Shown: positions 1 through 13,542 of the stretch, piece after piece
Layout of the letters: each line of letters opens with the position of its first letter
How positions within the stretch are numbered: position 1 is the stretch's first letter
Assembly: GCA_017443265.1 (NCBI GenBank)
Contig: JAFSOU010000015.1
Coordinates: 399-64,398 of the forward strand
DNA length: 64,000 nt
Origin: Bacteroidales bacterium
GTDB taxonomy: Bacteria; Bacteroidota; Bacteroidia; Bacteroidales; P3
Direction: 5' to 3'
The notes under the pieces: generated by a model
Databases searched by the model: none
What the model was told of the DNA's origin: nothing
What the model saw: the letters and a program-made list of their open reading frames with translations, nothing else
Position numbers and translations under genes: made by a program

Positions 1-1077
1 AACTTTGTTCACAATATCGATAGATATTACTTTTTTATTTTCTATTGCAGACATCATTGTATTATAGAATGCCTTTTGAGCACCCGACATATTATCCAAT
101 TCTTTTTCTGAGATTTCATCATTTTTGCGAACCACTCCATTATTTAATATAAATAACTCACTTGAAAAATCGAAAAAACTATTAATAATTTTAATAAATG
201 AATTAATATCTTCCAATTCCCCAGTAAGTACTAACTCCATCCCCGTAGGGTCAATAAATTTCACAGGATTATTCGCACAATACGCATAAGGCGTAAACGT
301 CGGATACTTTTCAAATAAGGGGTCACGGGAAGTAAACGTAGGCGGTGCATAATACCTCGCTTCGTAGTAGTACATTCCAGTTTCTTCATCTAATTCCTTG
401 GCATTAAAGCTGTACTTAGGCAACACCGAAGAACCAAAACTATTGTTATATTCATTCGTAATCTCCCCAAACGGAGCATACAAAAAACCTTGCACAACAC
501 TCCTGTTTTCATCCGTTACGTAGCACGTACTTCCCAGATGGTTCGGGTGGTAATAATAGACAGAGGAAGTATTTGGCATTAAGTTGGTTAAACCTACCTG
601 CGGTAACTCAAACACCGGTTTCGGGTCATCAGGATTTTGTTCCTCACCAACGGGAAGGAAGTTGTAGCCAGTAATATCAACTATATTGCGGCGTATATTA
701 GTGTCAAGTTGGTCTTTTCTATCCTGTAGCTCTGGGTCGTTTACATTCATAGAAATATTTTGGTCTCCAAGCCTACTTGCTATGCGCTCCATGCCGTTGT
801 AGTAGTGTTTGGTGTAGTAGCCGTCTTGGTTGAAGTTCAGGTAGCTATTGGGGTAGAACATGGCGTTGTGCAGGTTAAAGTTTACGCTTTCCAAACGGCC
901 GTTCACCCAGTTGGGGTTTAGGTCAAAGCTGTATTTGTAAGTTCTTGTTGTGCCTCCATCGTAGCCATACAAGGAGTAGAACAGCCTGTCGTAGCTGTAC
1001 ATACGCAGGTTGCCGTCCGCACCAAAGCGGTAGAGTTCTTCGGAGGGGGTGGGGGATGAGGTCGGGAGCAGGGACAT
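1..1077 (-). CDS. Orphan Rhs C-terminal module. An Rhs core-end fragment (241..1077) is fused to a different AT-rich toxin tip (1..240), and the 3' end lies outside the window.
   Basis: I translated the minus strand from the ATG at 1077..1075: MSLLPTSSPTPSEELYRFGADGNLRMYSYDRLFYSLYGYDGG...YYYHPNHLGSTCYVTDEN...YAPFGEITNE...YCANNPVKFIDPTG/MELVLTGELEDINSFIKIINSF... The frame stays open to position 1 (359 codons). Residues 11-279 align without gaps to the last 269 core residues of the large Rhs, and similarity stops right after DPTG. It is absent from the ORF track because no stop codon falls inside the window. Confidence 0.85.
   Translation of the reverse strand, partial: MSLLPTSSPTPSEELYRFGADGNLRMYSYDRLFYSLYGYDGGTTRTYKYSFDLNPNWVNGRLESVNFNLHNAMFYPNSYLNFNQDGYYTKHYYNGMERIASRLGDQNISMNVNDPELQDRKDQLDTNIRRNIVDITGYNFLPVGEEQNPDDPKPVFELPQVGLTNLMPNTSSVYYYHPNHLGSTCYVTDENRSVVQGFLYAPFGEITNEYNNSFGSSVLPKYSFNAKELDEETGMYYYEARYYAPPTFTSRDPLFEKYPTFTPYAYCANNPVKFIDPTGMELVLTGELEDINSFIKIINSFFDFSSELFILNNGVVRKNDEISEKELDNMSGAQKAFYNTMMSAIENKKVISIDIVNKV
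241..1047 (-). repeat. Diverged direct repeat (807 nt) of the rhs core 3' end. Its partner is 2463..3269.
   Basis: Codon-for-codon colinear with 2463..3269. Long identical runs occur, for example ttcacaggattattcgcacaatacgcataagg. Identity is roughly 80% by eye and was not computed. Confidence 0.85.
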
Positions 1078-1101: not shown

Positions 1102-1842
1102 TTAGTTGTCTTCTTTGTGTATGGTTTTTAATGGGATAAGGTATTTCACATATAAATCTCCATCATTTATTATGGGAGGATCTGTAGTCACAAAAGTCAA
1201 TAAATTGCGCCATCTTCTGTTCATTATTACAAGCAGAAATTCGTTTGTACCTTTGTATATATTGTAAAAAAAGCATTCTCTTACTCTTGTATCTTCCGAA
1301 CCATGTCTTCTGATTTTGATGACATCTTCCCAAGATGTGTCTATAGCAGGCATAGGGACATGGGAATAATTTTCCCAAGTGGGATAATCTAACATCGTAT
1401 AATCAAGTCTTTTTTTTATCTCATCGCTACATCTTGGATAGATATATTTCATAATGTTATTATATCGGTTCTCTATCAGAAAATAGTCTTTTTTACAGAC
1501 AAGAGATTTGATTTCATCAATTGACATTGAACGACTTATCGGAATATTGCAACTTCGGGTGTAAATTGTCCCGGTAGAATATTGAATTTTTGATTTAATT
1601 TTGATTAATCCATGACGTTTATTTGTCTTACGCGAATTCCAATACAAAAGATAGTGATAATAAGGGACTTCGTACCAGCGAGTGAATGAAGCCAAAGAGT
1701 CCAATTTAACAATTCCCAAGACAATACAGTCTATGTCGTAATTGCCTATGCTGTCAGTTTTTCTAAGCCTTTCGTTTGACTGGGCATGTATGCCATTATA
1801 TATCAATATCAAACAGATGATTACAATTATTTTTTTACCCAT
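1102..1842 (-). CDS. Candidate cognate immunity protein for the Rhs toxin tip (246 aa, N-terminal signal-peptide-like segment, no family recognised)
   Basis: The ORF starts 16 nt before the rhs stop (ATG at 1842..1840, rhs stop at 1827..1829). It is AT-rich like the toxin tip. The N-terminus MGKKIIVIICLILIYNGIHAQ is hydrophobic with an AxA-like end. The position immediately 3' of a polymorphic toxin tip fits an immunity gene. Confidence 0.6.
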   Translation of the reverse strand: MGKKIIVIICLILIYNGIHAQSNERLRKTDSIGNYDIDCIVLGIVKLDSLASFTRWYEVPYYHYLLYWNSRKTNKRHGLIKIKSKIQYSTGTIYTRSCNIPISRSMSIDEIKSLVCKKDYFLIENRYNNIMKYIYPRCSDEIKKRLDYTMLDYPTWENYSHVPMPAIDTSWEDVIKIRRHGSEDTRVRECFFYNIYKGTNEFLLVIMNRRWRNLLTFVTTDPPIINDGDLYVKYLIPLKTIHKEDN

Positions 1843-4800
1843 GGCCAGGTTATATTATTTTTTATTGTTCCGTTGTGTAATTTAGAAGGTATTTTTTTCA
1901 TTGGTTTATCTTTCCATGTTTTTTCAAAATCTTCAATTAATACTAGTTCTCCTCCATATGAAATGCCGGAAGAGATACGGGTTGGACATCCTGCTGTTGA
2001 AAAAATTAGAGCAATATAATCTTTTGAAATCCATTTTCCATCACCACCCGTTTCCATTAAACCATCCGTCCAGTGTTGAATACCAAGTGTATGCCCAATT
2101 TCATGTGCCATTGTTCTAATACCAGCAGTCGCTCTCAGACGAATTATATTACCATTTTCAGTTTCTCCTCTTGCTTTATCATCTCCAACATAAGTTCTCC
2201 CTTCATAATAATTAGCCATGCCCGACTTGTCATTTTCAAATGCTTTTTTTGCATCTTCTCGTACTTCTATTTGCAAATCAAACTTAATGGTATATTCTTG
2301 TTTTTCTTTACCTTCTCCAATAACATACTTATAACACCCAGATTCACTATTCCAAAAATGTATTCCTTTTTTTAAATCATCAGCATTCTCCTTCGATGTA
2401 TAGTATTTCGCTCTGAATGTTATAGTTTTATTTTCATCATCCACAACTGGTTCGAAATCTTCCCCCGTCGGATCCACGTACTTCACAGGATTATTCGCAC
2501 AATACGCATAAGGTGAGAAAGTTGGGTACCGCTCAAAGTGAGGATCACGTGAAATAAACACCGGCGGAGCCATGTATCGTGCCTCATAGTAGTACATTCC
2601 CGTCTCCTCATCCAACTCCTTGGCGTTAAAGGAGTACTTGGGCAACACAGAAGAACCAAAACTGCTATTATGCTCGTTAGTTATCTCTCCAAAGGGAGCG
2701 TACAAAAATCCCTGTTGTACTATAGCATTCTCATCCGTAACATAACAAGTGCTTCCCAAATGGTTGGGGTGGTAATAATAGACAGAGGAAGTGTTTGGTA
2801 TTAAGTTAGTTAAACCAATCTGTGGCAGTTCAAAAATCGGTTTCGGGTCTTCGTGGTTCTGCTCCTCGCCGGGTTCTAAAAATTCATATCCCGTTATTTC
2901 CACAATGTTTTTCCGTATTAAACTATCTTGCCACTCTTTACGGCTTTGCAGGTCGGGGTCGTTTACATTTATAGGCAGGTTCTGGTCGCCCAAGCGTGAG
3001 GCTATACGTTCCATTCCGTTGTAGTAGTGTTTTGTGTAGTAGCCGTTGCTATTAAAGTTCAAATAGCTGTTGGGGTAGAACATGGCATTATGTAGGTTAA
3101 AATTCACTGCCTCAAGTCTGCCGTTCACCCAGTTTGGAGACAAATCCATGCTGTACTTGTAGGTGCGAGTGGTGCCTCCGTCGTATCCGTACAGGGAGTA
3201 GAAAAGCCTGTCGTAGCTGTACAGCCGCAGGTTGCCGTCCGCGCCAAAGCGGTAGAGTTCTTCAGAGGGCTGTGCGTTGGGTATAGTTGTCTCCCTGCGC
3301 TGCAGGCTGCCGCCAATGCCGTACTGCTCGTTCACGTTGGTGCCGTCGGCATAGCTTATGTTGTTTGGGGCAAAGGTGGTCTGCCCTTCGTTAAGGCTGC
3401 CGTAACTGTAATAGCGTGTCTGGCTGGTGGTTGTGTTGCTGTTCAGGTCTGTCTGCTGCAGGCCGTACTCCTGTATCTTGCCCCAGTCGCCGTAGGTTAC
3501 GCTCAGGGCGTAGGTCTGCGGGTTGGCGGCGCTTACCAGCTGGTTTGTGCTGTCGTAGCTGAATGTCTCGGTAAAGGTCTGCCCCGCCAGCCACGGGTAG
3601 CTGCTCACGGCCTGCGTTATGTTGCCCGCGGGGTCGTAGCTGTAGGCTGTGTGGGAGAGCTGGCTGTTGCCGCTAAGGGTGGTTATGCCCGTCAGTCGGC
3701 AGTTCTGCGGGTGGTAGGCGTACTGCATCTTCAGGCCGTTGCCGTATTTGCGGCTTGTAACCGCACCAAACTTATCATAAAGTACACTATCTAAATAATT
3801 GTACATTGTTAATTGTACATTGTACATTCTAAACAACTGTCCGCCGCGGTCGTAGTCGTAGCTCACCGTCTCGCCGTCGGGGTAGGTTATGGAGGTGGTG
3901 CGTCCCCAGCTGTCGTATTCGTACTGCGTGGTAAGGGCAAGGTCGGTGGCAAGGAAAGGCAGCGCGTAGGTGCGGGTCTCGCTTTTCACCTCGCCCATGT
4001 TGCCGTAAGTGTAGTCCATGCGGCCGCTCTCGTCAAACACGGTCTCCACGCGTCCGGCGTAGTCGTAGCTATATACCGTGGGCAGTGTGCTGTCGCTGTA
4101 TATAACGCTGTCCAAGCGGTTGGCTATGTAGCGGCGGGTTATGGTCTTCTGCTTGGGCTGGCCGTTCTCCTGCCATTTATGCGTCTCGGTGGCAGGGTTC
4201 AGTCCGTCGTAGGTGTAGAGGGTCTCGAGGTGTCCCTCGCCGTAGCTTAACCGGCGGCCCAGCCAGTCGTACTCGTATGCGCGGCTCCAGTCGCCGTTGT
4301 TGGAGCTATATACCGCCAACAGGTCGCCCACGGGGCTGTAGTCGCAGTATAGCCACGGCTGTCCTGCGGCCTTGGCGGCCCATTGTCTGCCGTCGGCGTC
4401 CTTCAGCGTTGTGGAGGTGTGGCCGTTGGGGTCGGTAACGGCGGTGCGGAACAGCGTTTTGTTAAGGTGGCTGCCGCTGAAACCGTAGGCTGTGCGTGTG
4501 GTGCTGCCGTCGGGTGCTGTCTGCACCAGCGGTCTGTCGAGCACGTCGTAGGTCGCTGTGGACGGTGTTATCGCGTCCACGGCAAAGGCAAAGCGTGTGC
4601 TGTCGCGGTGCGCCTCGGTGGGGTGGTAGGTGGCCACGGCCCTGCCGAGGCCGTCAAATACGGTGTGCCCGCTCACCACTAATTTCTCCACGCCCTGCAC
4701 CTCGGCTTCAACGCGGGTCTGCACCGCGCGCCCGAGGCCGTCGCAGTAGGTGTGGGTCTTTATGGGGTTGGCGGGGTGCTGCGGGTCGTAGTTCTCCGTG

Positions 4801-7800
4801 GTGGCCGAGGACACGTTGCGTGCCGTCTCCTTGCCGCGGTAGGTGTAGCGTATGGTGTATGGCGCGCCGTCGGCTATCTCCTTGGGGCCGCGTATCGTCA
4901 GGGGGCGTCCCCAGCTGTCGAGGGTGTACTCCATGCTGTTGCCGGCGCGGTCGGTAACCGTCAGCGGCACGCCGTAGCGCAGGTCGTAGTTCTGCATCTG
5001 CGAGCTTGTGCCGAAAGTGTCCGTAACGCTCTCGGGATAGGTGTGGACGTCGCCGTCGTAGGTGTAATGCACGGCGGTGTTGGGGCCGCGCACATCGGTG
5101 ATATTGCCGTAAATGTCGAACACATAACGGGTTGCGAGGGTGTTCTGCCCGTCGTAGTCCATTATTGCGGTGTAGTGTCCCAATGTGTCTATATCTGTGG
5201 TTCTCAGTCGCATACCTTGTATTTCCACACGTTGTACTTTATTAACGATGTGGTTGCCGTTATATTGCGGGTGGTACGCAATTTCCACTTCCACCGTCGG
5301 CTGGTCGGTGCTGCCGTGGCGTTGCAGCACCACGTTTCCGTTGCCGAAATCGTAGTCTGTCTCCTGCCACTTCACTATGCCCGCCGTGGGCTGTCCTTCG
5401 TAATAGCATGTCTGCGAGCGTGTTATGTACGGAAATACCCTTTCGGCGTCGCCAATCACGTCAAGAGTTTCTTGTTGCAGGGTGTTGGCGGTCTGCACAT
5501 ACAGCAGTCCCCTCGAGTTTCGCAAAAAGCTGGCCACAGGTATGCCCTTGGTATGTATGTCGCTGTTGCTGAAATACTTGTCGGCGGTACTGTGCACGGT
5601 GTCGCCGTTCCAGCGGGTTTCCGTCACCTTGGCGAACCCGAGGAAGGCTTTCTCGTCGCGGTCGTAGTATCCGTGGCTGTAGCTGTAGGTGGTGCGCAGG
5701 GTGTCGCGCCCGTCGCCGGGCAGGCCGTCGCATATCTTCAGCTCTCTCGCCACCCAGCGGCGCTGGTGATATACCGTTGGGGCCGTAAGCTCGTAGTCGG
5801 CGTATATGGTGCCGCCCAAGGGGTTGGTGATGCTTTTCAGCAGACCGGTGCGTCCCATGCGCGAGTAGCGCACCGCTATCTCCGTGCCGCTCTCCGATTT
5901 CAGCAGGTCGGCCACGCCGTCGCCGTCCATGTCGCTTATCTGCAGTTTTTCGTTGCTCAGGCTCATGGAGGCCTTGAGGCCCGCGCTGCCGCCCGCTTTA
6001 AGTAGCCAGAACGACCATCCGCCTGTGCCTTCTATATTTGTCGAGGCGCTGGTGGAGGTGCCGTATTCCGCAAGGTTGGCCAGTATGTCGGGTGTGCGCC
6101 ATGCCGTCCATCCCGCGGCGAAGGCGCTGCCGGTGTTGCGGCGGTATTGTATCTCGCCGTCGGCGAAATTCCTCCTCACAAGGTCGGGCAGGCCGTCGCC
6201 GTCCATGTCCTGCAGGAACACCGTCTGCGTGTTGCTGGCCGTGGTTACGCCCACGCCTCCGCTTATGGCGTTGTTCCAAATGCTGAAAGTGCCCGAGGCG
6301 CTTGCCGAGAGGCTCAGCGAGGCGCTCACCGTATCCAACCCTGGCCATTGCTGCTGCGGCAGGAAACCGTAGCCGGTGCCGAGGCGCACGGTGCCGTCGG
6401 AGCATACTATGTCGGGCAGTCCGTCGCCGTTGAGGTCGGCAAGGGTTCTGTAGGTGCTGTCGGAGGCTTTGCTCGCGCCGGGGCTTAGCACAAAGTCCCT
6501 GCCACGTCCCGAGGAGGTGGTCTGTTTGGAGGTGTTCAAAAACTGTCCTGGCAGCACTACGGATCGGCTATTGCCCGTCCCGCTGTAGGGGTGCCCGCCG
6601 CCGAAGGGCCGGTACGCCGCGCTTTCGTAGCTTAATATATGGTAGGGCTTGGTGTAATATACTCCGCCGCCGTCTATTATGTCGGGACGGCCGTCGCCGT
6701 TGAGGTCCGTAACGTCGCGCTCCATCCATGTCCTGCCGTTGCCGGCGGAATACAGGGCCACGGTGTACGAGAAATTCTTGCTCTTGCTTATCTTGTCCAG
6801 TTTGCCTCCTCCGGCCGCCGTCGCGCGGCTGCCAGTGGAGCCTCCGGATGTGCGGTATGCGCGGTCGCCTCCGCCGGAGCTCTGGCCGCAGGGTATGGTG
6901 TTGCCCGCCACATTGGGCAGCAGGGTGTCCGTCATCACTCCGAGGCTTATCGCGGGTCCGCTCACGTAGGCGTTGGGGTATATGCCCTCCATGCGGCGGC
7001 GCTCGCCGTTGCCTGTCAGCGGCATGCAGCCGAACAGCGAGAGCACGTCCCCTACGGTGCCTGTCGTGGTGGTGTCCGACAGCTGTTTCAGGTAGTTGCT
7101 GTCCGTAAGGTTGCCGTAATAGGTGTTCAGGTCGGTTGCACTGCTAGGCATATTGCTTATACTGAACAACTTGGCAAGATTTATCTTGATACTGTCGTCG
7201 TGGCGGTACTGCACAGCGTGCCAGCCGCCGAAACCGTGGCCGAAGGGCAGCGAGGCCGTGCTGAGGTGGTATTTGGGGCTCCCGGCCCTGTAGCAGCGGT
7301 AGTTAGGCACTATGTGGTATTCCAGCGTCTTTATGGTGTCCACAACACCTCCCGCAAGGGTGTCGAAATACATCGTGGTCACCGTCCCGCCGCCGGCGGT
7401 GAGGGTCTTGTAATAAAGGTAGGGATGCCACTGGTTGTCTTTCCATACGGTGGAGGTGTCGCCTATGGCGTCGAAAATCAGGCTGTCTTCCTCGGCAAGG
7501 GTTATCACGGTGTCCCACACGGGGCTGCTGCCGGGAGTCAGTGTCCGCATCAGCGTGTTGTTGCGGCGTATCTCCAGCCGCACCGCGCTGGCGAAATCCG
7601 CCGCCGCGGTAGGCACTCGGAGCGCCGCCTGTCCGTTGCCGGGCGACACGAACCTGCCGCCGCCCATGGCGAAACCGGCCACCTCGCTGCGCTGCCCGTG
7701 GGTGGGGTAGCGATAGGGGTGGAACACCTGCACCCGAGGGTTCCAGTGCAGCTCGCGGCTCACATCACGGCCGCCTTTGCTGCGGGCGCGGAACAGCAGC

Positions 7801-10800
7801 ATGCCCTCGCCGTAATCGGGAGGCTCCGTGCCTACGCACTGCTCCAGAATCCTTTCTATGTACTCGCGGCTGAGGTAGCCGTTGTCGGGGTCTGTCAGGT
7901 CGCCGCGCCACAGTGTGTCGGTACCTGTAAGGGTGTCGATGGCTATGAGCACATGCACGGGCGAGCCTGTGCCCTTGGGCATATAGGTTTGGCCGTAGTA
8001 CTCCACGCTGAGCACCACGGTGTCGGGACGCTCCTCGGCATTGCGCACAAGGCCGCCCAGCCACGCCTTGGCGTCGATGGACAGTATGGTGGTGTGGGGG
8101 ATGTCCTCGCTCTCCCATATCCTTATTATGTCGTAATGGGGCGATTCCTCATCTATGGAGCTCTCCGCGTCGGGTATCTCGTCGAGGCCGAGGGGCTCCA
8201 CGCAGGGATATTTGGGGGTGGCGTCGGGGGTTACAGTGGGCGTGCCGCAGCCGCCGGGCATGGTCATGCTCGGGGCATTGTAGCGGCCTCCGAGACGGCT
8301 TATACGGCTGTCGTCCACTATGTCGGGCAGTCCGTCGCCGTCCATGTCGCTCAGATAGGTGCCTGTGGTGGTGGTGGTGGTGCTCCAGCTTACGCCGCCG
8401 CTGATGCCCGCCACATTCAGAACGGGACCGTGGCTGACGCTCACACGGCTGTCCCTCAGATAGTTGCCGGCACCGCTTATCGGCGACGGGGTAAGGAAGG
8501 CTCCGTTCTGCTGACGCTGCCAGTGCAGTCCGCCGTTAATCACCAAAAGGCGGTCGGGAAGGCCGTCGCCGTCCACGTCGCAAAGGGTGCTGCTACCGTA
8601 GCCAAGGCCGTAGTCGGCGCCAAGGCTGTACGACACGCTGTTTATCTTCGACGAGGTGTTGGCGCCCACACCGGCATACACTCCGGCGTCGCCGCCGAAA
8701 CTGAGGCTCGCATTGCCGCCTATCACCGTCCTCGTGCCCAGAACGCCCGACAACGAGCGCTCTATGGGCTTGCGCAGCTTGCCGTGGGCGCCGCCCAGAA
8801 GTCCGCCCAAACCGTAGTCGGCTGTGGTCATGGTGGTCGTGGCCGTGCCCAGAAGGCTGTCGGCATCTATCTCACGGTAGTATTCTATGTCGTGGTCGCG
8901 GCTGCCGTCGCTGTAGTCGCGCCCCCACTGGCGTATCTTCCTCAGCTGGGCCATGCCGTGGATGTCCTCGCCGTAGCAGAAACTGTAGCTCCGCACCATC
9001 TCGTCGCCGTAATAGACAAGGATGCGCCGCAGCTTGTCGCGCTGGCTCTGCAGATGGCCGCTGCGGGCCTCGTTGCGGTCGGTCTTGGGATACTCCCTGT
9101 CGCAGTCGCAGAGATCCATGCCGAGATAGAAATCAGGAACTTCCTTGCCGCCTATATATATGTTCTCTATGCTGTCGGCGTTTATGCTTCCGCTGCCTCC
9201 GCCGCACAGGTCGTTCTCTATTTCAAGGTGCAGGGTGTTGACCCCTGCCGTCTCGTTCTTTATCATGACGCCGGTGGGACCTTGGTCTGTTACCACAGGC
9301 TCGCATTCGTTCGGGAGGCCGGTGCTTTCAAAGTGGAACTCGTATCCCTTGAAGGGGGCGCACACATGTGCCGAATGCAGCTCGTTTATCGTTATGGTGG
9401 AGCCGCACTCCACCGTCGGCAGCTGCAGGCTGATGACGCCGGCGCCGTCGGTGGTCGGCGTGTGGGTGCCCGAGGCGGTAACTATCTCGAAGGGTATCCC
9501 CGCGAGGGGGCGGCCGGTGCCGGCCTCGGTCTTTATTATGTTTATCTGAACGGGGGAGCACTCGCATTTCACGCACGGGTGGTCCTTCAATATCAGCGTC
9601 AGACCGTTGCCTTGTATGTATGTCTTCTCCAACACGTCGGCAAAGTCTCCCTGGCTTATTATCTCTGCCGTGCACGGCTCGTAAGGCTCGTCCTTGTGCA
9701 TCCTGAACTGGAAATTGTGAAGACTGTCGCAGTACCCGTTTACAGACTGCTCGTTCACCGTTATCACCTCGTCGCAAAGGACTCCATTCAATATGGCGTT
9801 TATCTTTCCGTCAGCGCCGGTGATGTAGGTGTGGGTGCCGCCGCCGTATGTTACGCGGAACTCCACGCCGGGCATCGGCGTCTTGTCAGTGGCATCGTAT
9901 TTCTCTATGTTGAGCTCCACGTTGGGACACTCGCACTTGTCGCACTCGTCGTTATAAATCTCTATGATTATGTGGTGGTCGGTGGCCTGGATGCTCTTTA
10001 TCTTGCCGGGGTCGCTGCCGGTGTCCAGCACTTGGGGCGTTGTGCTGCCGCTCGGCATGCGAAGGGTTATTTTGTCCACCATGTTGCAGTATCCTGGTGC
10101 CGAAATTTCGCGTATCACAATGGTGTCGCCCTGCTGTATGCACACGTCCCACGACGCCTCTCCGGATGCGTCGGTGGTCGCGGGCCATACGCCGTGGACG
10201 CCACGCAGGTCCGACAGCTCGAAAACGGCTCCCGGGATGAGGTTCCCGCTCCGTTTGTCGTATTTCAACACCTCCACAAGCAAATCCATGCAGGTGCCGG
10301 GGGGCGACAGAGGGTCGCAAAGATTGGCGCTTACCGCAACGGATCGACCGGAGCGGCTCCTGCCGGACGCTCCTCGACCGCCGCCTTCGCCGCTGCCTCC
10401 GGACAAGTCTGTGCCGGTACCGCCAGCCGCATCGCGGCACGGGTTGGCTGTGCTCCCGAAAAAGACGTTGTACACTCCTCTCTCGCCTGTACGGCTGTTG
10501 CCGGTGTATTCTATGCTCTCCAGCCACAGCTGACGGCCCAGGTACACTCCGCCAGCGTCGTACTGACGGCGCTTGTTGTAGTGGTAACTTATGTAGTTGC
10601 CGTCGGCGTCCTCAACACGGCACAGCGGCCAGTGGCTTATGTTGCCGCCGGCGTCGCGCATAAGCACGGTGTCTGCCAGGGCATAACCGGCGTAGGTGCC
10701 GTAATAGTATTTGGTGCCGCCTTTGTCGGTTACTATCCAATAATAGTTCTGGGGGCTTGTGCCGTGGCGCTCTATCTTGTCGTAGCTGCTCTCCGTCCTG

Positions 10801-11762
10801 CGCCAGAAAACTTTTGCCCCTGCGGTATGGCGGGGCTCCCACTGCTGCTGGTAGCGCGGCGAGGGCAGCAGCTCCTCGCCGTCGATGACGTAGCTCTCGG
10901 TCTCGCTGGACATGTCGTAGCGCGGGACACCCCAACGGCTGTCCACGCTTATGGCTGATGTGCGCATGTCCCAGCCCACTCCCAGCAGTCCGTCGCCTCC
11001 GCCGCTGCTGTAGCCTATAGTAAGGTCGGGCTGCATGCCTCTGCGGCCTTGCGGCAATTCTATGGGGTATCTGGCGGTGAGTTCTCCCTGGCTGTTGCCC
11101 GCCGACACCTCGGCAAGCGTAACTCCCGCGGCGGGGTCGGCGGCCTTCAGCTCTTTCAGCCCCGTGGGGGTGAACGACTGTCCCTCGGGCATCTCGGGAT
11201 GGCTCACCACGGCGTTTATCATGTCGGTGAAATGGGTGGTGCGGGAATATACTATGCCCCCGGATACGGAATCGCGCTGCAGACGCTTCCACACTTTCAT
11301 GCCCTCGTCATAATAATAGGTATATATGTCCTTGTGGCTGTAGCCTTTGGGCAGCTTGGCCTCGTCGTAGCCTATCTGTATGCCGGCGGCTTTGCGGAAA
11401 TGCTCGCCGTGCGGCAGGAATCGGTACCCGGCGTGTCCGGACGTGACATTGACCATGCCCGCGCCCAGAGGAGGCAAATCAGCGTCTATGCCGCCGACAC
11501 TGAGCTTTGTGCCATGTCTAAGACTGCCACTCTCGCATACGAGCAGCGCATCGTCGAAACGCATCTCGAATGCCTCGCCTCCCGTGGCATAGTACTCCGA
11601 CGAAGTGGGCTTTCCCGATGCTTCATCTCCTTTTTTTATGTCTTCCGACGGCTTGCCGCCAAGATTAGTCGTCCCGAAACTGTAATAGCCATAGACGCTG
11701 GCACTGGCCACAAACGCCAGCGCCGCAACGATAAGGATTGTCCTTGACATACCGCTTCTCAT
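1827..11762 (-). CDS. Giant Rhs/YD-repeat polymorphic toxin (3311 aa) with a fused TcB-like (SpvB N-domain plus FG-GAP/VCBS propeller motifs) and TcC-like (YD shell) architecture and a C-terminal metallopeptidase-type tip
   Basis: N-terminal hydrophobic signal MRSGMSRTILIVAALAFVASASVYG. SpvB/TcaC-N-type motif YPIELPQGRRGMQPDLTIGYSSGGGDGLLGVGWDMRTSAISVDSRWGVPRYD. Six DxDGDGxxD motifs (DVDGDGLPDRL, DMDGDGLPDIV, DLNGDGRPDII, DLNGDGLPDIV, DMDGDGLPDLV, DMDGDGVADLL). Many YD repeats (YxYDxxGR/N-type). Rhs core end YYYHPNHLGSTCYVTDEN...YAPFGE...NPVKYVDPTG. Confidence 0.95.
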   Translation of the reverse strand: MRSGMSRTILIVAALAFVASASVYGYYSFGTTNLGGKPSEDIKKGDEASGKPTSSEYYATGGEAFEMRFDDALLVCESGSLRHGTKLSVGGIDADLPPLGAGMVNVTSGHAGYRFLPHGEHFRKAAGIQIGYDEAKLPKGYSHKDIYTYYYDEGMKVWKRLQRDSVSGGIVYSRTTHFTDMINAVVSHPEMPEGQSFTPTGLKELKAADPAAGVTLAEVSAGNSQGELTARYPIELPQGRRGMQPDLTIGYSSGGGDGLLGVGWDMRTSAISVDSRWGVPRYDMSSETESYVIDGEELLPSPRYQQQWEPRHTAGAKVFWRRTESSYDKIERHGTSPQNYYWIVTDKGGTKYYYGTYAGYALADTVLMRDAGGNISHWPLCRVEDADGNYISYHYNKRRQYDAGGVYLGRQLWLESIEYTGNSRTGERGVYNVFFGSTANPCRDAAGGTGTDLSGGSGEGGGRGASGRSRSGRSVAVSANLCDPLSPPGTCMDLLVEVLKYDKRSGNLIPGAVFELSDLRGVHGVWPATTDASGEASWDVCIQQGDTIVIREISAPGYCNMVDKITLRMPSGSTTPQVLDTGSDPGKIKSIQATDHHIIIEIYNDECDKCECPNVELNIEKYDATDKTPMPGVEFRVTYGGGTHTYITGADGKINAILNGVLCDEVITVNEQSVNGYCDSLHNFQFRMHKDEPYEPCTAEIISQGDFADVLEKTYIQGNGLTLILKDHPCVKCECSPVQINIIKTEAGTGRPLAGIPFEIVTASGTHTPTTDGAGVISLQLPTVECGSTITINELHSAHVCAPFKGYEFHFESTGLPNECEPVVTDQGPTGVMIKNETAGVNTLHLEIENDLCGGGSGSINADSIENIYIGGKEVPDFYLGMDLCDCDREYPKTDRNEARSGHLQSQRDKLRRILVYYGDEMVRSYSFCYGEDIHGMAQLRKIRQWGRDYSDGSRDHDIEYYREIDADSLLGTATTTMTTADYGLGGLLGGAHGKLRKPIERSLSGVLGTRTVIGGNASLSFGGDAGVYAGVGANTSSKINSVSYSLGADYGLGYGSSTLCDVDGDGLPDRLLVINGGLHWQRQQNGAFLTPSPISGAGNYLRDSRVSVSHGPVLNVAGISGGVSWSTTTTTTGTYLSDMDGDGLPDIVDDSRISRLGGRYNAPSMTMPGGCGTPTVTPDATPKYPCVEPLGLDEIPDAESSIDEESPHYDIIRIWESEDIPHTTILSIDAKAWLGGLVRNAEERPDTVVLSVEYYGQTYMPKGTGSPVHVLIAIDTLTGTDTLWRGDLTDPDNGYLSREYIERILEQCVGTEPPDYGEGMLLFRARSKGGRDVSRELHWNPRVQVFHPYRYPTHGQRSEVAGFAMGGGRFVSPGNGQAALRVPTAAADFASAVRLEIRRNNTLMRTLTPGSSPVWDTVITLAEEDSLIFDAIGDTSTVWKDNQWHPYLYYKTLTAGGGTVTTMYFDTLAGGVVDTIKTLEYHIVPNYRCYRAGSPKYHLSTASLPFGHGFGGWHAVQYRHDDSIKINLAKLFSISNMPSSATDLNTYYGNLTDSNYLKQLSDTTTTGTVGDVLSLFGCMPLTGNGERRRMEGIYPNAYVSGPAISLGVMTDTLLPNVAGNTIPCGQSSGGGDRAYRTSGGSTGSRATAAGGGKLDKISKSKNFSYTVALYSAGNGRTWMERDVTDLNGDGRPDIIDGGGVYYTKPYHILSYESAAYRPFGGGHPYSGTGNSRSVVLPGQFLNTSKQTTSSGRGRDFVLSPGASKASDSTYRTLADLNGDGLPDIVCSDGTVRLGTGYGFLPQQQWPGLDTVSASLSLSASASGTFSIWNNAISGGVGVTTASNTQTVFLQDMDGDGLPDLVRRNFADGEIQYRRNTGSAFAAGWTAWRTPDILANLAEYGTSTSASTNIEGTGGWSFWLLKAGGSAGLKASMSLSNEKLQISDMDGDGVADLLKSESGTEIAVRYSRMGRTGLLKSITNPLGGTIYADYELTAPTVYHQRRWVARELKICDGLPGDGRDTLRTTYSYSHGYYDRDEKAFLGFAKVTETRWNGDTVHSTADKYFSNSDIHTKGIPVASFLRNSRGLLYVQTANTLQQETLDVIGDAERVFPYITRSQTCYYEGQPTAGIVKWQETDYDFGNGNVVLQRHGSTDQPTVEVEIAYHPQYNGNHIVNKVQRVEIQGMRLRTTDIDTLGHYTAIMDYDGQNTLATRYVFDIYGNITDVRGPNTAVHYTYDGDVHTYPESVTDTFGTSSQMQNYDLRYGVPLTVTDRAGNSMEYTLDSWGRPLTIRGPKEIADGAPYTIRYTYRGKETARNVSSATTENYDPQHPANPIKTHTYCDGLGRAVQTRVEAEVQGVEKLVVSGHTVFDGLGRAVATYHPTEAHRDSTRFAFAVDAITPSTATYDVLDRPLVQTAPDGSTTRTAYGFSGSHLNKTLFRTAVTDPNGHTSTTLKDADGRQWAAKAAGQPWLYCDYSPVGDLLAVYSSNNGDWSRAYEYDWLGRRLSYGEGHLETLYTYDGLNPATETHKWQENGQPKQKTITRRYIANRLDSVIYSDSTLPTVYSYDYAGRVETVFDESGRMDYTYGNMGEVKSETRTYALPFLATDLALTTQYEYDSWGRTTSITYPDGETVSYDYDRGGQLFRMYNVQLTMYNYLDSVLYDKFGAVTSRKYGNGLKMQYAYHPQNCRLTGITTLSGNSQLSHTAYSYDPAGNITQAVSSYPWLAGQTFTETFSYDSTNQLVSAANPQTYALSVTYGDWGKIQEYGLQQTDLNSNTTTSQTRYYSYGSLNEGQTTFAPNNISYADGTNVNEQYGIGGSLQRRETTIPNAQPSEELYRFGADGNLRLYSYDRLFYSLYGYDGGTTRTYKYSMDLSPNWVNGRLEAVNFNLHNAMFYPNSYLNFNSNGYYTKHYYNGMERIASRLGDQNLPINVNDPDLQSRKEWQDSLIRKNIVEITGYEFLEPGEEQNHEDPKPIFELPQIGLTNLIPNTSSVYYYHPNHLGSTCYVTDENAIVQQGFLYAPFGEITNEHNSSFGSSVLPKYSFNAKELDEETGMYYYEARYMAPPVFISRDPHFERYPTFSPYAYCANNPVKYVDPTGEDFEPVVDDENKTITFRAKYYTSKENADDLKKGIHFWNSESGCYKYVIGEGKEKQEYTIKFDLQIEVREDAKKAFENDKSGMANYYEGRTYVGDDKARGETENGNIIRLRATAGIRTMAHEIGHTLGIQHWTDGLMETGGDGKWISKDYIALIFSTAGCPTRISSGISYGGELVLIEDFEKTWKDKPMKKIPSKLHNGTIKNNITWPWVKK
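1830..2462 (-). other. C-terminal toxin domain of the Rhs protein (211 aa after DPTG) carrying the metzincin-type zinc motif HEIGHTLGIQH (2073..2105)
   Basis: The reverse complement of 2073..2105 reads CAT GAA ATT GGG CAT ACA CTT GGT ATT CAA CAC, which translates to HEIGHTLGIQH (HExxHxxGxxH). It is followed by WTDGLMETGG, a possible Met-turn. GC content drops sharply exactly at the DPTG boundary. Confidence 0.75.
2463..3269 (-). repeat. rhs core 3' segment duplicated in the orphan module. Its partner is 241..1047.
   Basis: Encodes PSEELYRFGADGNLRLYSYDRLFY...NPVKYVDPTG, colinear with the orphan copy. Confidence 0.85.
9204..10292 (-). repeat. Three tandem ~120-aa Cna-B/SpaA-like (prealbumin-fold) repeats inserted in the N-terminal TcB-like region (aa 491-853)
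   Basis: R1 is CMDLLVEVLKYDKRSGNLIPGAVFELSD...ISAPGYC. R2 is CECPNVELNIEKYDATDKTPMPGVEFRVTYGGGTHTYITGADGKINA...SVNGYC. R3 is CECSPVQINIIKTEAGTGRPLAGIPFEIVTASGTHTPTTDGAGVISL. Each is bounded by Cys pairs. A Gly/Ser/Arg-rich linker (GGTGTDLSGGSGEGGGRGASGRSRSGRS) precedes them. Confidence 0.65.
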
Positions 11763-11774
11763 ATTGCCGCCCTC

Positions 11775-13010
11775 CTATTTCTTTATAAGTTTCACACGGT
11801 ACTCGTTGTCGCCACCGCGCACCACCACAATGTAGTTGCCCGACATAAGTGTATGTATGTCAACGGATTGCTCATTTTCTCCCAGTTCCACTTTTTTGCA
11901 ACTGAGGCCAAGCGGGTTAATTATCTCCACCTCTTTCGTCTTTCCGGCAAAGCCGTCTATCTCTATGCGGTCGCTTGCAGGGTTGGGATGGATTCCAACT
12001 TGAGCTGTGGCGTCGTCGTAAATTGCTTCGCTTGCCGACTTCTCGTTTCTTTCTCCTTCGTCCAACGATACGGCCGTTGTCCCTTGAGGTGTTTCTTTCG
12101 TGGTTAGGCTCAATTTGTAAATTCCCCGTATGTCGTTTTCAAAACGTATGGCGAATGTGTAATAGTGGTCGTCGGCTGACGTGGATTCAAAATGGGTCTC
12201 GGTGGAAGTGGCACCGATTATTTTCTCCAATACTGCCACTGGCTCCGAGTCGTGCCAACGCCCGTTGCGGCCTACGCTAATCTGTACCGTCCTGCCGGCA
12301 AGTCCCTCGCGAACTATGCGCCAGCTGTTTTCGTAGCCATGTGCATCCCCTTCCCCGAACAGCAGGTAATCGCCTGCGTCTATGCCGACGCACATCGCCC
12401 TAATCTCCTCGTCGCCACGCTTCGACAAGCAGCTGACTTTATCCAGCCCCAGGACATTGTCGCGTGCAATTCCGAAAACACGGCTGCTGTAGTCAGGTGC
12501 CTCCTCGCAGTTCCACAGCGTGTCGCCTGCCTCGCTTACATAATAATTTATGGTTATATCGTGTTTAAGGGCGAGGTAGGTCTCGGCCTTGCGCCTGTCC
12601 AACTCGCTCAACGGTCTTGTGTACAGCAGCAACTCCCGTATGTCGGTGCTGTCGTTGCTCTCTACGTTCAATATCCCCGATTTGCTGCCCAGCATCGTGG
12701 TGCTGCTGTGCAGGGTGAGGCTGCTTGTTTTCGCCTCCTGCTGCCCTTGTCTGTACTGCAACACTCCACAATCCCTGCCGCCTACACGTATTACGAACAC
12801 GTTTTCAGGCGTTTCTTCGCTCTTGCGTGCTGAATATACAGCTATGACGCTCACCGTAGGCTTGGTCGACGAACGCAACCCCGCCGACAGACTGCAACAA
12901 CCGTCAGCACCCGTACTCTTGCACCAACTGTCGGGCACAACACTGGGCTGGGAATGTATAGAGAATACCGTACAACAAAACGATATTATCAAAAATATTC
13001 TTTTTTTCAT
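11775..13010 (-). CDS. Secreted protein with a T9SS C-terminal sorting domain, encoded directly upstream of rhs. The N-terminal part is possibly LamG/concanavalin-like.
   Basis: Likely start is MKKRIFLIISFCCTVFSIHSQ (ATG at 13010), and the ORF-track start at 13100 adds 30 unlikely residues. The C-terminus IHPNPASDRIEIDGFAGKTKEVEIINPLGLSCKKVELGENEQSVDIHTLMSGNYIVVVRGGDNEYRVKLIKK matches the type A T9SS CTD pattern. Its stop codon lies 12 nt before the rhs ATG. The LamG-like guess rests only on IRELLLYTRPLSELDRRKAETYLALKH. Confidence 0.8.
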   Translation of the reverse strand: MKKRIFLIISFCCTVFSIHSQPSVVPDSWCKSTGADGCCSLSAGLRSSTKPTVSVIAVYSARKSEETPENVFVIRVGGRDCGVLQYRQGQQEAKTSSLTLHSSTTMLGSKSGILNVESNDSTDIRELLLYTRPLSELDRRKAETYLALKHDITINYYVSEAGDTLWNCEEAPDYSSRVFGIARDNVLGLDKVSCLSKRGDEEIRAMCVGIDAGDYLLFGEGDAHGYENSWRIVREGLAGRTVQISVGRNGRWHDSEPVAVLEKIIGATSTETHFESTSADDHYYTFAIRFENDIRGIYKLSLTTKETPQGTTAVSLDEGERNEKSASEAIYDDATAQVGIHPNPASDRIEIDGFAGKTKEVEIINPLGLSCKKVELGENEQSVDIHTLMSGNYIVVVRGGDNEYRVKLIKK

Positions 13011-13542
13011 GGTGTAATACTGTTTTAATTCACCTGCAAGTTTAATAATTATTTTTTTATATTCCAAATATTTAACATTATATTCCTTGTGAAATAGCAT
13101 AAATAGCCATAAAAATAATTTAAAAATATTTCAATTTTAACATTTTATCTTCAAAAAATGCCCCCTAAAAACACTTTTTTCCCCTCTCTATACTGGCATA
13201 TTTTAGCAATATTGCTGGAACTTAAAAAAGCAATGATTATTTTGATGTCTTGGCATCATATTATTTGCACCAACTATCTGAATAGCACATAATTACTTTG
13301 GTACTTTGAATTGATGTTTTTTTGGTTATATTTAATTAGTCTTCAAATCGTTTTTATTATAAAGCCTTGCAAATTGCACTATATTAATAAGTTATACATA
13401 TTACTAGAAGATTAACGCACCACTATTATTTTGAGAAAAAAGAAATAGAAGAATTCTGGGGCAAGCGATACAATTCAACACATAAGCACTTATCAAATTG
13501 TTATACAATAATATACAAAGACATTTTTGCCAAACGGCACAT

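Follow-up and report, generated by a model that had tools for sequence, protein, structure and literature searches.

Metallopeptidase effectors that act outside the cytoplasm have been described in several forms. The C-terminal metallopeptidase of VgrG2b from Pseudomonas aeruginosa is toxic in the periplasm only, loses toxicity in an E-to-A mutant and is countered by the immunity protein PA0261, which needs its signal peptide (PMC6899460). Likewise, the Rhs-M91 effector SED_RS06335 of Salmonella Dublin is toxic only when equipped with a PelB leader, and its immunity protein SED_RS06340 is predicted to face the periplasm (PMC13556075). Zhang et al. (2012) reported that peptidase toxins acting at the cell surface have immunity proteins that are secreted or transmembrane. 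They also described the metallopeptidase domains Tox-MPTase1 to Tox-MPTase5 at the C-termini of RHS proteins, some of them in Bacteroidetes and some with a TcdB/TcaC leader, as HExxH-only, Wss1-like zincins without known immunity (PMC3482391). Here we analyzed a 64,000-nucleotide stretch of DNA from an uncultured Bacteroidales bacterium of the ruminant gut (contig JAFSOU010000015.1), referred to as the window. It contains a gene for an Rhs/YD polymorphic toxin of 3311 residues (1827..11762, minus strand) whose C-terminal tip carries a metzincin-type signature, followed by a small open reading frame (ORF) for a predicted exported protein. Comparative genomics, in particular export signals and gene pairing, supports a reading to which we assign a probability of about 0.7, namely that the tip is a metzincin-type toxin domain acting in the periplasm or on the envelope of target cells and neutralized by the exported downstream immunity protein.

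The functional template for this reading is VgrG2b, which resembles the locus in that a delivery protein bears a zinc peptidase with HExxH, predicted in the window tip, and is paired with an exported immunity protein. In contrast to the window tip, the VgrG2b domain is a DUF4157-type zincin delivered on the VgrG spike by a proteobacterial type VI secretion system (T6SS), and its sequence is unrelated to both the tip and the immunity candidate. The Rhs-M91 effector resembles the locus in its metallopeptidase tip at the C-terminus of an Rhs protein, a tip that is toxic only when directed to the periplasm and is neutralized by a periplasm-facing immunity protein. However, it combines a PAAR N-terminus and T6SS delivery with a Peptidase_M91 tip, whereas the window protein matches neither PAAR nor M91. 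The original prediction had placed the tip in the context of the Tox-MPTase families and had contrasted its extracytoplasmic target with the cytoplasmic action of most characterized Rhs tips. Metallopeptidase tips do exist in polymorphic toxins, but the window tip and its family are matched by no Tox-MPTase Pfam model. The extracytoplasmic target is supported by the comparisons below, but it is less unusual than implied because VgrG2b (PMC6899460) and Rhs-M91 (PMC13556075) precede it. Metallopeptidase effectors that act in the periplasm and are countered by exported immunity proteins are thus an established concept, and it is the tip and immunity families that are new to the curated libraries.

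Metzincin-type signature of the toxin tip

The Rhs core ends with the motif DPTG (residues 3097-3100; 2463..2474, minus strand) in the context SPYAYCANNPVKYVDPTG, after which the C-terminus runs from EDFEPVV to WPWVKK. As originally noted, this tip comprises exactly 211 residues after DPTG (1830..2462, minus strand) and is AT-rich. It can be divided into a core (residues ~10-160) and a tail of ~50 residues. The tip has a G+C content of 0.336 and the downstream ORF one of 0.329, compared to 0.606 for the Rhs core and 0.495 for the remainder of the window. The segment singled out in the original prediction (1102-2462) extends from the end of the immunity ORF at 1102 to the first tip codon after DPTG at 2462. 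Reading the minus strand, we found the exact HExxHxxGxxH motif that had been described (HEIGHTLGIQH; 2073..2105; tip residues H120, E121, H124, G127 and H130), the putative zinc-binding and catalytic motif. It is followed by GLMETGG (2043..2063, minus strand), a candidate Met-turn in which M136 is encoded at 2055..2057. The 64-kb window, translated in all six frames, contains a single HExxHxxGxxH, where 0.007 occurrences would be expected from the amino acid composition.

A word-indexed search with the tip retrieved eight related clusters. An exhaustive profile search recovered 694 representatives of the tip family at E ≤ 0.001, 389 of them at E ≤ 1e-10, where representatives are clusters at 50% identity. 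Almost all of the 694 are located at the C-termini of Rhs/YD proteins or fragments. This distribution, the drop in G+C content, the position after the core-end motif and the orphan cassettes described below together argue for a toxin role of the tip. The family signature reads HExGHxxGxx[H/E/D], followed by G[LIV]M. H120, E121, G123 and H124 are invariant in tip alignments of 9 and 37 sequences; G127, G134 and M136 are either invariant or conserved to at least 90% (G134 and M136 invariant among the 9, M136 at least 90% conserved among the 37). These active-site residues hold while overall identity across the family drops to 26-40%. Furthermore, a motif in the tail, ..[FL]xNGx[IV]K.. (residues ~190-205; window ~1848..1895), is kept family-wide with G198 at least 90% conserved, and the ~40 residues that precede it are highly variable. 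Scans of a genome collection with alignment A7 and with the single tip gave no confirmed locus. L015 and L016 of the same collection encode the tip, and the empty scans are therefore false negatives and do not indicate absence.

The third-ligand column was compared among 144 family representatives. It holds His in 83, Glu in 33 and Asp in 20, a few members lack a ligand residue, and a Met in G[LIV]M context stands at +6 from the third ligand in 93. In the window tip this position (residue 130; 2073..2075) is occupied by His. A Glu-type tip occurs as an orphan in L008, where it is 80% identical to the window tip and paired with an immunity protein 97% identical to that of the window. We know of no characterized metzincin with Glu as third ligand; judged from the alignment, about a quarter of the tip family may use it to bind zinc.

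No Pfam or NCBIfam family claims the window tip at its gathering score, and the tip family has no name in either library. Peptidase_M10 matched residues 26-132 of the window tip with E 0.0035. Weak, sub-threshold matches to Peptidase_M10 and reprolysin-like models are common to all 9 close members, and three distant members exceed the gathering scores of Reprolysin_4, Reprolysin_5 or M66. The Tox-MPTase Pfam models matched neither the tip and its 9 close members at E ≤ 1 nor 10 distant members at E ≤ 0.01. This comparison covers the Tox-MPTase2-5 models; Tox-MPTase1 is believed to have no Pfam model. The M91 Pfam model likewise gave no match for the tip or its close members.

Profile searches of the PDB with the tip family returned metzincins exclusively, with serralysins among the top matches for the motif region. 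The best solved-structure match of the 37-sequence profile was snapalysin (1c7k, 4hx3), with E 1.9e-4 and significance over ~40 residues. Snapalysin (MEROPS M7; PDB 1c7k/1kuh/4hx3), the small neutral protease of Streptomyces, is the smallest metzincin and a free secreted enzyme of Actinobacteria. In the profile alignment its segment HETGHVLGLPDHY....SELMSGGG is paired with HEiGHtLGlghfs....kglMesgg of the family (GLMETGG in the window tip), and according to the literature the aligned snapalysin segment contains its Met-turn. Both proteins have a short catalytic domain with HExxHxxGxx(D/H) and a Met a few residues further on in an ..LMSGG.. context; the N-terminal strand-helix segment of snapalysin also aligns weakly with the tip. 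In contrast to snapalysin with its ~130 residues, the tip is longer (~160 + 50 residues), resides at the end of an Rhs protein and belongs to a family with H, E or D as third ligand. Pfam Peptidase_M7 (PF02031) matches one of the 9 members, below threshold (E 0.0025). The metzincin-type signature recognized at the outset is thus backed by the conserved residues H120, E121, H124, G127, G134 and M136 and by the profile alignment to snapalysin. We regard the tip as a predicted minimal, snapalysin-like metzincin that lies outside family M7, with snapalysin as closest relative, and M136 as a sequence-supported candidate for the Met-turn.

An AlphaFold2 model of the tip, calculated from an 8-sequence alignment, had a mean predicted local distance difference test (pLDDT) score of 58.6 and was moderately confident for residues 5-128. 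The predicted order of elements in this low-confidence model, strand-helix-strand-strand-(helix)-strand-strand-strand-helix(HEIGH), fits the metzincin N-terminal subdomain up to the active-site helix. Metzincin catalytic domains have a five-stranded sheet with helix A and the active-site helix B, and a lower subdomain that ends in helix C. Past residue 128 the model is unreliable.

The downstream protein and its pairing with the tip

The ORF downstream of the tip (1102..1842, minus strand) encodes a protein of 246 residues that starts with MGKKIIVIICLILIYNGIHAQ (MGKKIIVIICLILIYNGIHAQS). It overlaps the end of the Rhs ORF by 16 nt (1827..1842, minus strand), in agreement with the original prediction, and comparable overlaps exist in L001-L006, L008 and L009. 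The overlap points to expression as an operon, which is probably coupled. The family of the protein had not been recognized in the original prediction, and profile searches likewise match nothing: Pfam and NCBIfam, including the Imm families, Inh and SUKH, gave no match, and a PDB sequence profile search yielded nothing below E = 1. A model of the protein (pLDDT 63, low confidence) had no Foldseek match. Ten clusters of this family were found in 5.8 billion proteins, and a profile to which the three most divergent members had been added contributed just one more cluster. As the search relies on shared 5-residue words, the family may exceed ten clusters.

Each of the ten clusters has a signal-peptide-like N-terminus. 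For the window protein a type I signal peptide is predicted (MGKKIIVIICLILIYNGIHA; 1783..1842, minus strand) with cleavage at IHA↓QS and Gln at +1. Its layout is MGKK, IIVIICLILI and IHA↓QS, with two positive charges in the n-region and a mean hydropathy of 4.1 over a 10-residue window. Across the family, one to three positive charges are followed by 10-14 strongly hydrophobic residues while the sequence otherwise drifts. An [A/S]↓Q site at residues 19-23 is present in 12 of 15 related downstream ORFs; the homologues show, for example, IHA↓Q, IRA↓Q, IFA↓Q, VHS↓Q, LYS↓Q, SYA↓Q, TFS↓Q or TYA↓Q. In Bacteroidetes, substrates of signal peptidase I are marked by Gln at +1, the so-called Q-rule (PMC5837995). 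Moreover, the nine closer members all retain C39 and C138 of the mature part, which fits an oxidizing compartment. The protein is predicted to be Sec-exported, and since it contains neither a lipobox nor a C-terminal domain of the type IX secretion system (T9SS), it is most likely soluble in the periplasm. A lipoprotein was considered and rejected: the Cys at residue 10 lies too early and the preceding V-I-I is not lipobox-like, and the [A/S]↓Q site kept in the homologues also contradicts it.

Wherever genomic context was available, the immunity family directly follows the tip family, which is the case in seven other loci. Besides L008 (tip 80%, partner 97% identical to the window pair), these are L016 (56% and 47%), L015 (55% and 52%), L009 (54% and 52%), L020 (47% and 39%), P0037 (46% and 27%) and L007 (42% and 33%). 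Partner identity falls in step with tip identity, and therefore both families diverge together. In P0037 (536 residues) the tip and an immunity homologue with signal peptide (MKILFILTLLFMNIGNTFSQ...) are contained in one ORF, owing either to genuine fusion or read-through or to a frameshift introduced by sequencing or assembly.

A further homologue, 29% identical to the window immunity protein, is encoded at 5962..6660 of L017 (1..11180), a segment of the Bacteroidales metagenome-assembled genome (MAG) Hm464_bin103 with ~18 co-oriented small ORFs and no toxin gene. A signal peptide or lipobox is found in most of these ORFs, MKRERKSKMKVIK forms the start of several, and AATGTATCAAATAnGGAGTT precedes several. 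Orphan-immunity islands have been described in Bacteroidales, and the L017 array looks like such an island specialized for exported immunity proteins. Pairing and co-divergence with the tip at seven loci, the toxin-less array and the conserved signal peptide, including the [A/S]↓Q site, identify the downstream protein as the candidate cognate immunity protein. This agrees with the exported immunity candidate proposed originally.

Tips of 27-31% identity (L023/L027, L025, L026) precede proteins that are unrelated to the window immunity family, and these partners also begin with a signal peptide or a lipobox (LSC). The tip family recurs in orphan cassettes of L008 and L007. The orphan cassettes of L008 (1..7426) include three tips of unknown type, whose partners are two lipoproteins and one membrane protein. 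In L007 (1198..5302), the homologue of the window tip adjoins a Peptidase_M91 tip (E 3e-10) whose downstream partner is a Sel1 protein with signal peptide, a further likeness to the Rhs-M91 system. Both arrays suggest that periplasmic action may be the rule for the SpvB-type class of Rhs proteins.

Site of action and alternative explanations

From motif conservation, gene pairing with co-divergence, signal-peptide features and cassette architecture we infer a mechanism in which the tip would be a small zinc endopeptidase of the metzincin type at the end of a Sec-dependent SpvB/FG-GAP/RHS protein. H120, H124 and H130 would bind zinc, E121 would serve as general base and M136 would form the Met-turn beneath the metal. 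Freed from the Rhs shell at DPTG, the tip would act as a toxin outside the cytoplasmic membrane in neighbouring cells of the Bacteroidales, in the periplasm or at the envelope. The most likely substrate would be an essential envelope protein and not DNA, RNA or a cytoplasmic target. The immunity protein would be exported by Sec, cut by signal peptidase I at IHA↓Q and retained in the periplasm, where it would bind and block the protease in producer and sibling cells. Whether it faces an incoming toxin or the producer's own Sec-exported protein, the harmful activity would be located outside the cytoplasm either way, and the argument holds for both. The periplasm or envelope as site of action, already put forward in the original prediction, gains support from comparative genomics in that the partners are predicted to be exported, even those of distant tips.

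Several points weigh against this reading. The tip remains just under every Pfam gathering score, the best being 21.2 bits for Reprolysin_4 with a cut-off of 22. The structural model has pLDDT values below 40 for residues 129-211, the region of the third ligand and the Met-turn, and a Foldseek search of this low-confidence model against the PDB gave no match at E ≤ 0.001, with insignificant GTPase-like hits only, a result that we regard as uninformative. A third of the tip family has Glu or Asp instead of the third His. Both families are known from sequence alone, and the host belongs to an uncultured MAG lineage. Periplasmic inhibitors beside secreted metzincins also occur in non-toxin systems, such as the serralysins with Inh/AprI. 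Finally, a route would be required by which the Sec-exported Rhs protein crosses the outer membranes of producer and target and the tip enters the target cell.

The alternative that survives best, although we consider it unlikely, retains enzyme and compartment but assigns another substrate: the tip might attack stem peptides or cross-links of peptidoglycan as a lytic effector, like Tae or LD-peptidase toxins. Many periplasm-acting effectors are peptidoglycan hydrolases and the immunity protein is predicted to be periplasmic; a cell-wall peptidase toxin has also been linked to secreted or transmembrane immunity proteins by Zhang et al. (2012) (PMC3482391). However, all sequence affinities found here are to protein-cleaving metzincins, namely snapalysin, matrix metalloproteinases, ADAMs, serralysins and fragilysin, and for this reason an envelope protein is favoured over peptidoglycan. 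The peptidoglycan metallo-endopeptidases known to us have LAS, M23 or M15 folds, and none of them is a metzincin. VgrG2b, the closest functional precedent, reportedly showed no peptidoglycan hydrolase activity (PMC6899460).

Slightly less probable is a secreted protease that targets host, dietary or eukaryotic proteins and comes with its own periplasmic inhibitor, whose sole task would be to shield the producer during transit of the protease through the periplasm; in this case the two proteins would not form an interbacterial pair. The serralysins (AprA/AprI, PrtC/Inh) provide the model, as they too combine a metzincin with a small Sec-exported periplasmic protein that blocks the active site. 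The Rhs protein is itself predicted to be Sec-dependent, so that its cargo would fold in the periplasm of the producer, and SpvB/TcB-TcC-like shells are best known from toxins against eukaryotes. In contrast to the window pair, serralysins are free proteases secreted by the type I pathway, their inhibitor family is unrelated, and they display neither cassette polymorphism nor orphan arrays. Polymorphic cassettes with orphan tip-immunity modules and tight co-divergence, as found here, are typical of interbacterial conflict, and an immunity homologue in the toxin-less L017 array makes sense only if an incoming toxin needs to be neutralized. The missing Pfam match of the downstream ORF to the Inh family points in the same direction.

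That the hydrophobic N-terminus of the downstream protein stays uncleaved as an anchor or stems from faulty annotation, and that protein and toxin act in the cytoplasm, is very improbable. A Cys within the hydrophobic region is common among the immunity homologues. However, despite sequence drift the homologues keep the charged n-region, the hydrophobic stretch of 10-14 residues and, 19-23 residues into the protein, a small residue before Gln. The invariant cysteines of the mature part are in keeping with an oxidizing compartment, and the unrelated partners of distant tips include a clear lipobox. A decayed or non-catalytic tip, for instance a binding module with a relic motif, is the least credible option: although the third ligand may be H, E or D and is absent in a few members, and although confidence in the tip model is low, HExxH, Gly and Met are conserved over hundreds of clusters amid strong divergence and a dedicated immunity gene is maintained.

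The periplasm- or envelope-acting metzincin tip with its exported immunity protein thus remains our preferred reading. The pair represents two families that lack annotation, a large toxin family of hundreds of clusters and an immunity family, both from Bacteroidales of ruminant and other guts. To our knowledge, interbacterial weapons other than the T6SS are poorly known in these bacteria. It offers testable hypotheses on the periplasm as compartment and on metzincin catalysis with H, E or D as third ligand. The substrate of the tip could reveal a new vulnerable envelope protein in Bacteroidota and hence a possible antibacterial target. Every tip in the cassette arrays seen has an exported, lipid-anchored or membrane partner, which leads to a broader and rather speculative idea. 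In gut and rumen Bacteroidales, Sec-dependent SpvB-propeller-RHS proteins may deliver cargo solely to the target periplasm, with the metzincin family (~700 clusters) as their main uncharacterized payload, including the first metzincins with Glu as third ligand. If true, the delivery logic of SpvB-type Rhs proteins would be distinct from that of PAAR-Rhs proteins and the T6SS.

Architecture of the Rhs locus

Pfam domains in the Rhs protein comprise SpvB (E 1.7e-22), three SpaA-like domains (SpaA, E 6e-15), FG-GAP_3 (E 8e-14), FG-GAP, TcdB_toxin_midN (E 1.5e-11), RHS_repeat (E 1e-10) and DUF6443. They follow a signal peptide or anchor in the order SpvB, three SpaA-like domains, FG-GAP propeller, TcdB_toxin_midN, RHS repeats and tip; the N-terminus itself, MRSGMSRTILIVAALAFVASASVYG, looks like a signal peptide or anchor. 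A signal peptide, SpvB and an integrin-like propeller before the RHS repeats define the TcdB/TcaC export class (PMC3482391), with which the window protein agrees in every defining sequence feature. PAAR and VgrG have no Pfam match within the 3311 residues, and T6SS genes are absent from the ten genes upstream, the part of the window considered for T6SS genes. By its sequence the Rhs protein does not appear to be a T6SS-delivered effector.

The protein displays an RHS/YD shell with the core-end motif ..PYxYxxNNPxxxxDPxG (here ..SPYAYCANNPVKYVDPTG) and a variable tip. DPTG is found at the same place in all homologues. Autocleavage at the core end is known from Rhs proteins, and by analogy DPTG is presumed to be the autoproteolytic release site of the tip. 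A releasing peptidase like the PVC-metallopeptidase was considered for the tip and rejected, as the tip forms the very end of the protein, behind the core-end motif, and is paired with an immunity protein of its own.

On its other side, the immunity gene adjoins an orphan Rhs C-terminal fragment (1..1077, minus strand) that starts with M at 1075..1077 and has its own DPTG at 241..252. It bears a different AT-rich tip, MELVLTGELEDINSF..., of which 80 residues are visible before it runs off the left end of the window, so that the partner gene of this tip is out of view; these 80 residues have no Pfam match. The core-end DNA is duplicated, with 207..964 of the orphan fragment and 2429..3186 of the main gene being 70-82% identical at a constant spacing of 2222 nt. 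Judged from the sequence, this repeat would provide a ready substrate for tip-swapping recombination, and main gene and fragment conform to the standard layout of Rhs loci with displaced tip-immunity cassettes.

The ten genes upstream of the Rhs gene encode a T9SS C-terminal domain protein, OmpH, BamA, UppS and other housekeeping functions of a Bacteroidota chromosome. The gene directly upstream (11775..13100, minus strand) codes for a 441-residue protein with a T9SS C-terminal sorting domain, and the same neighbour precedes the Rhs gene in L001, where it is annotated as DUF8202 + Por_Secre_tail. RpoB shares 95% identity with its counterpart in an uncultured red deer MAG of the Bacteroidales, the next relatives being ~76% identical. 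Inside the Rhs gene, the plus strand contains long antisense ORFs of up to 1439 residues, e.g. 6639..10958, which are most likely a by-product of composition and repeat structure in the GC-rich Rhs core and not genes.

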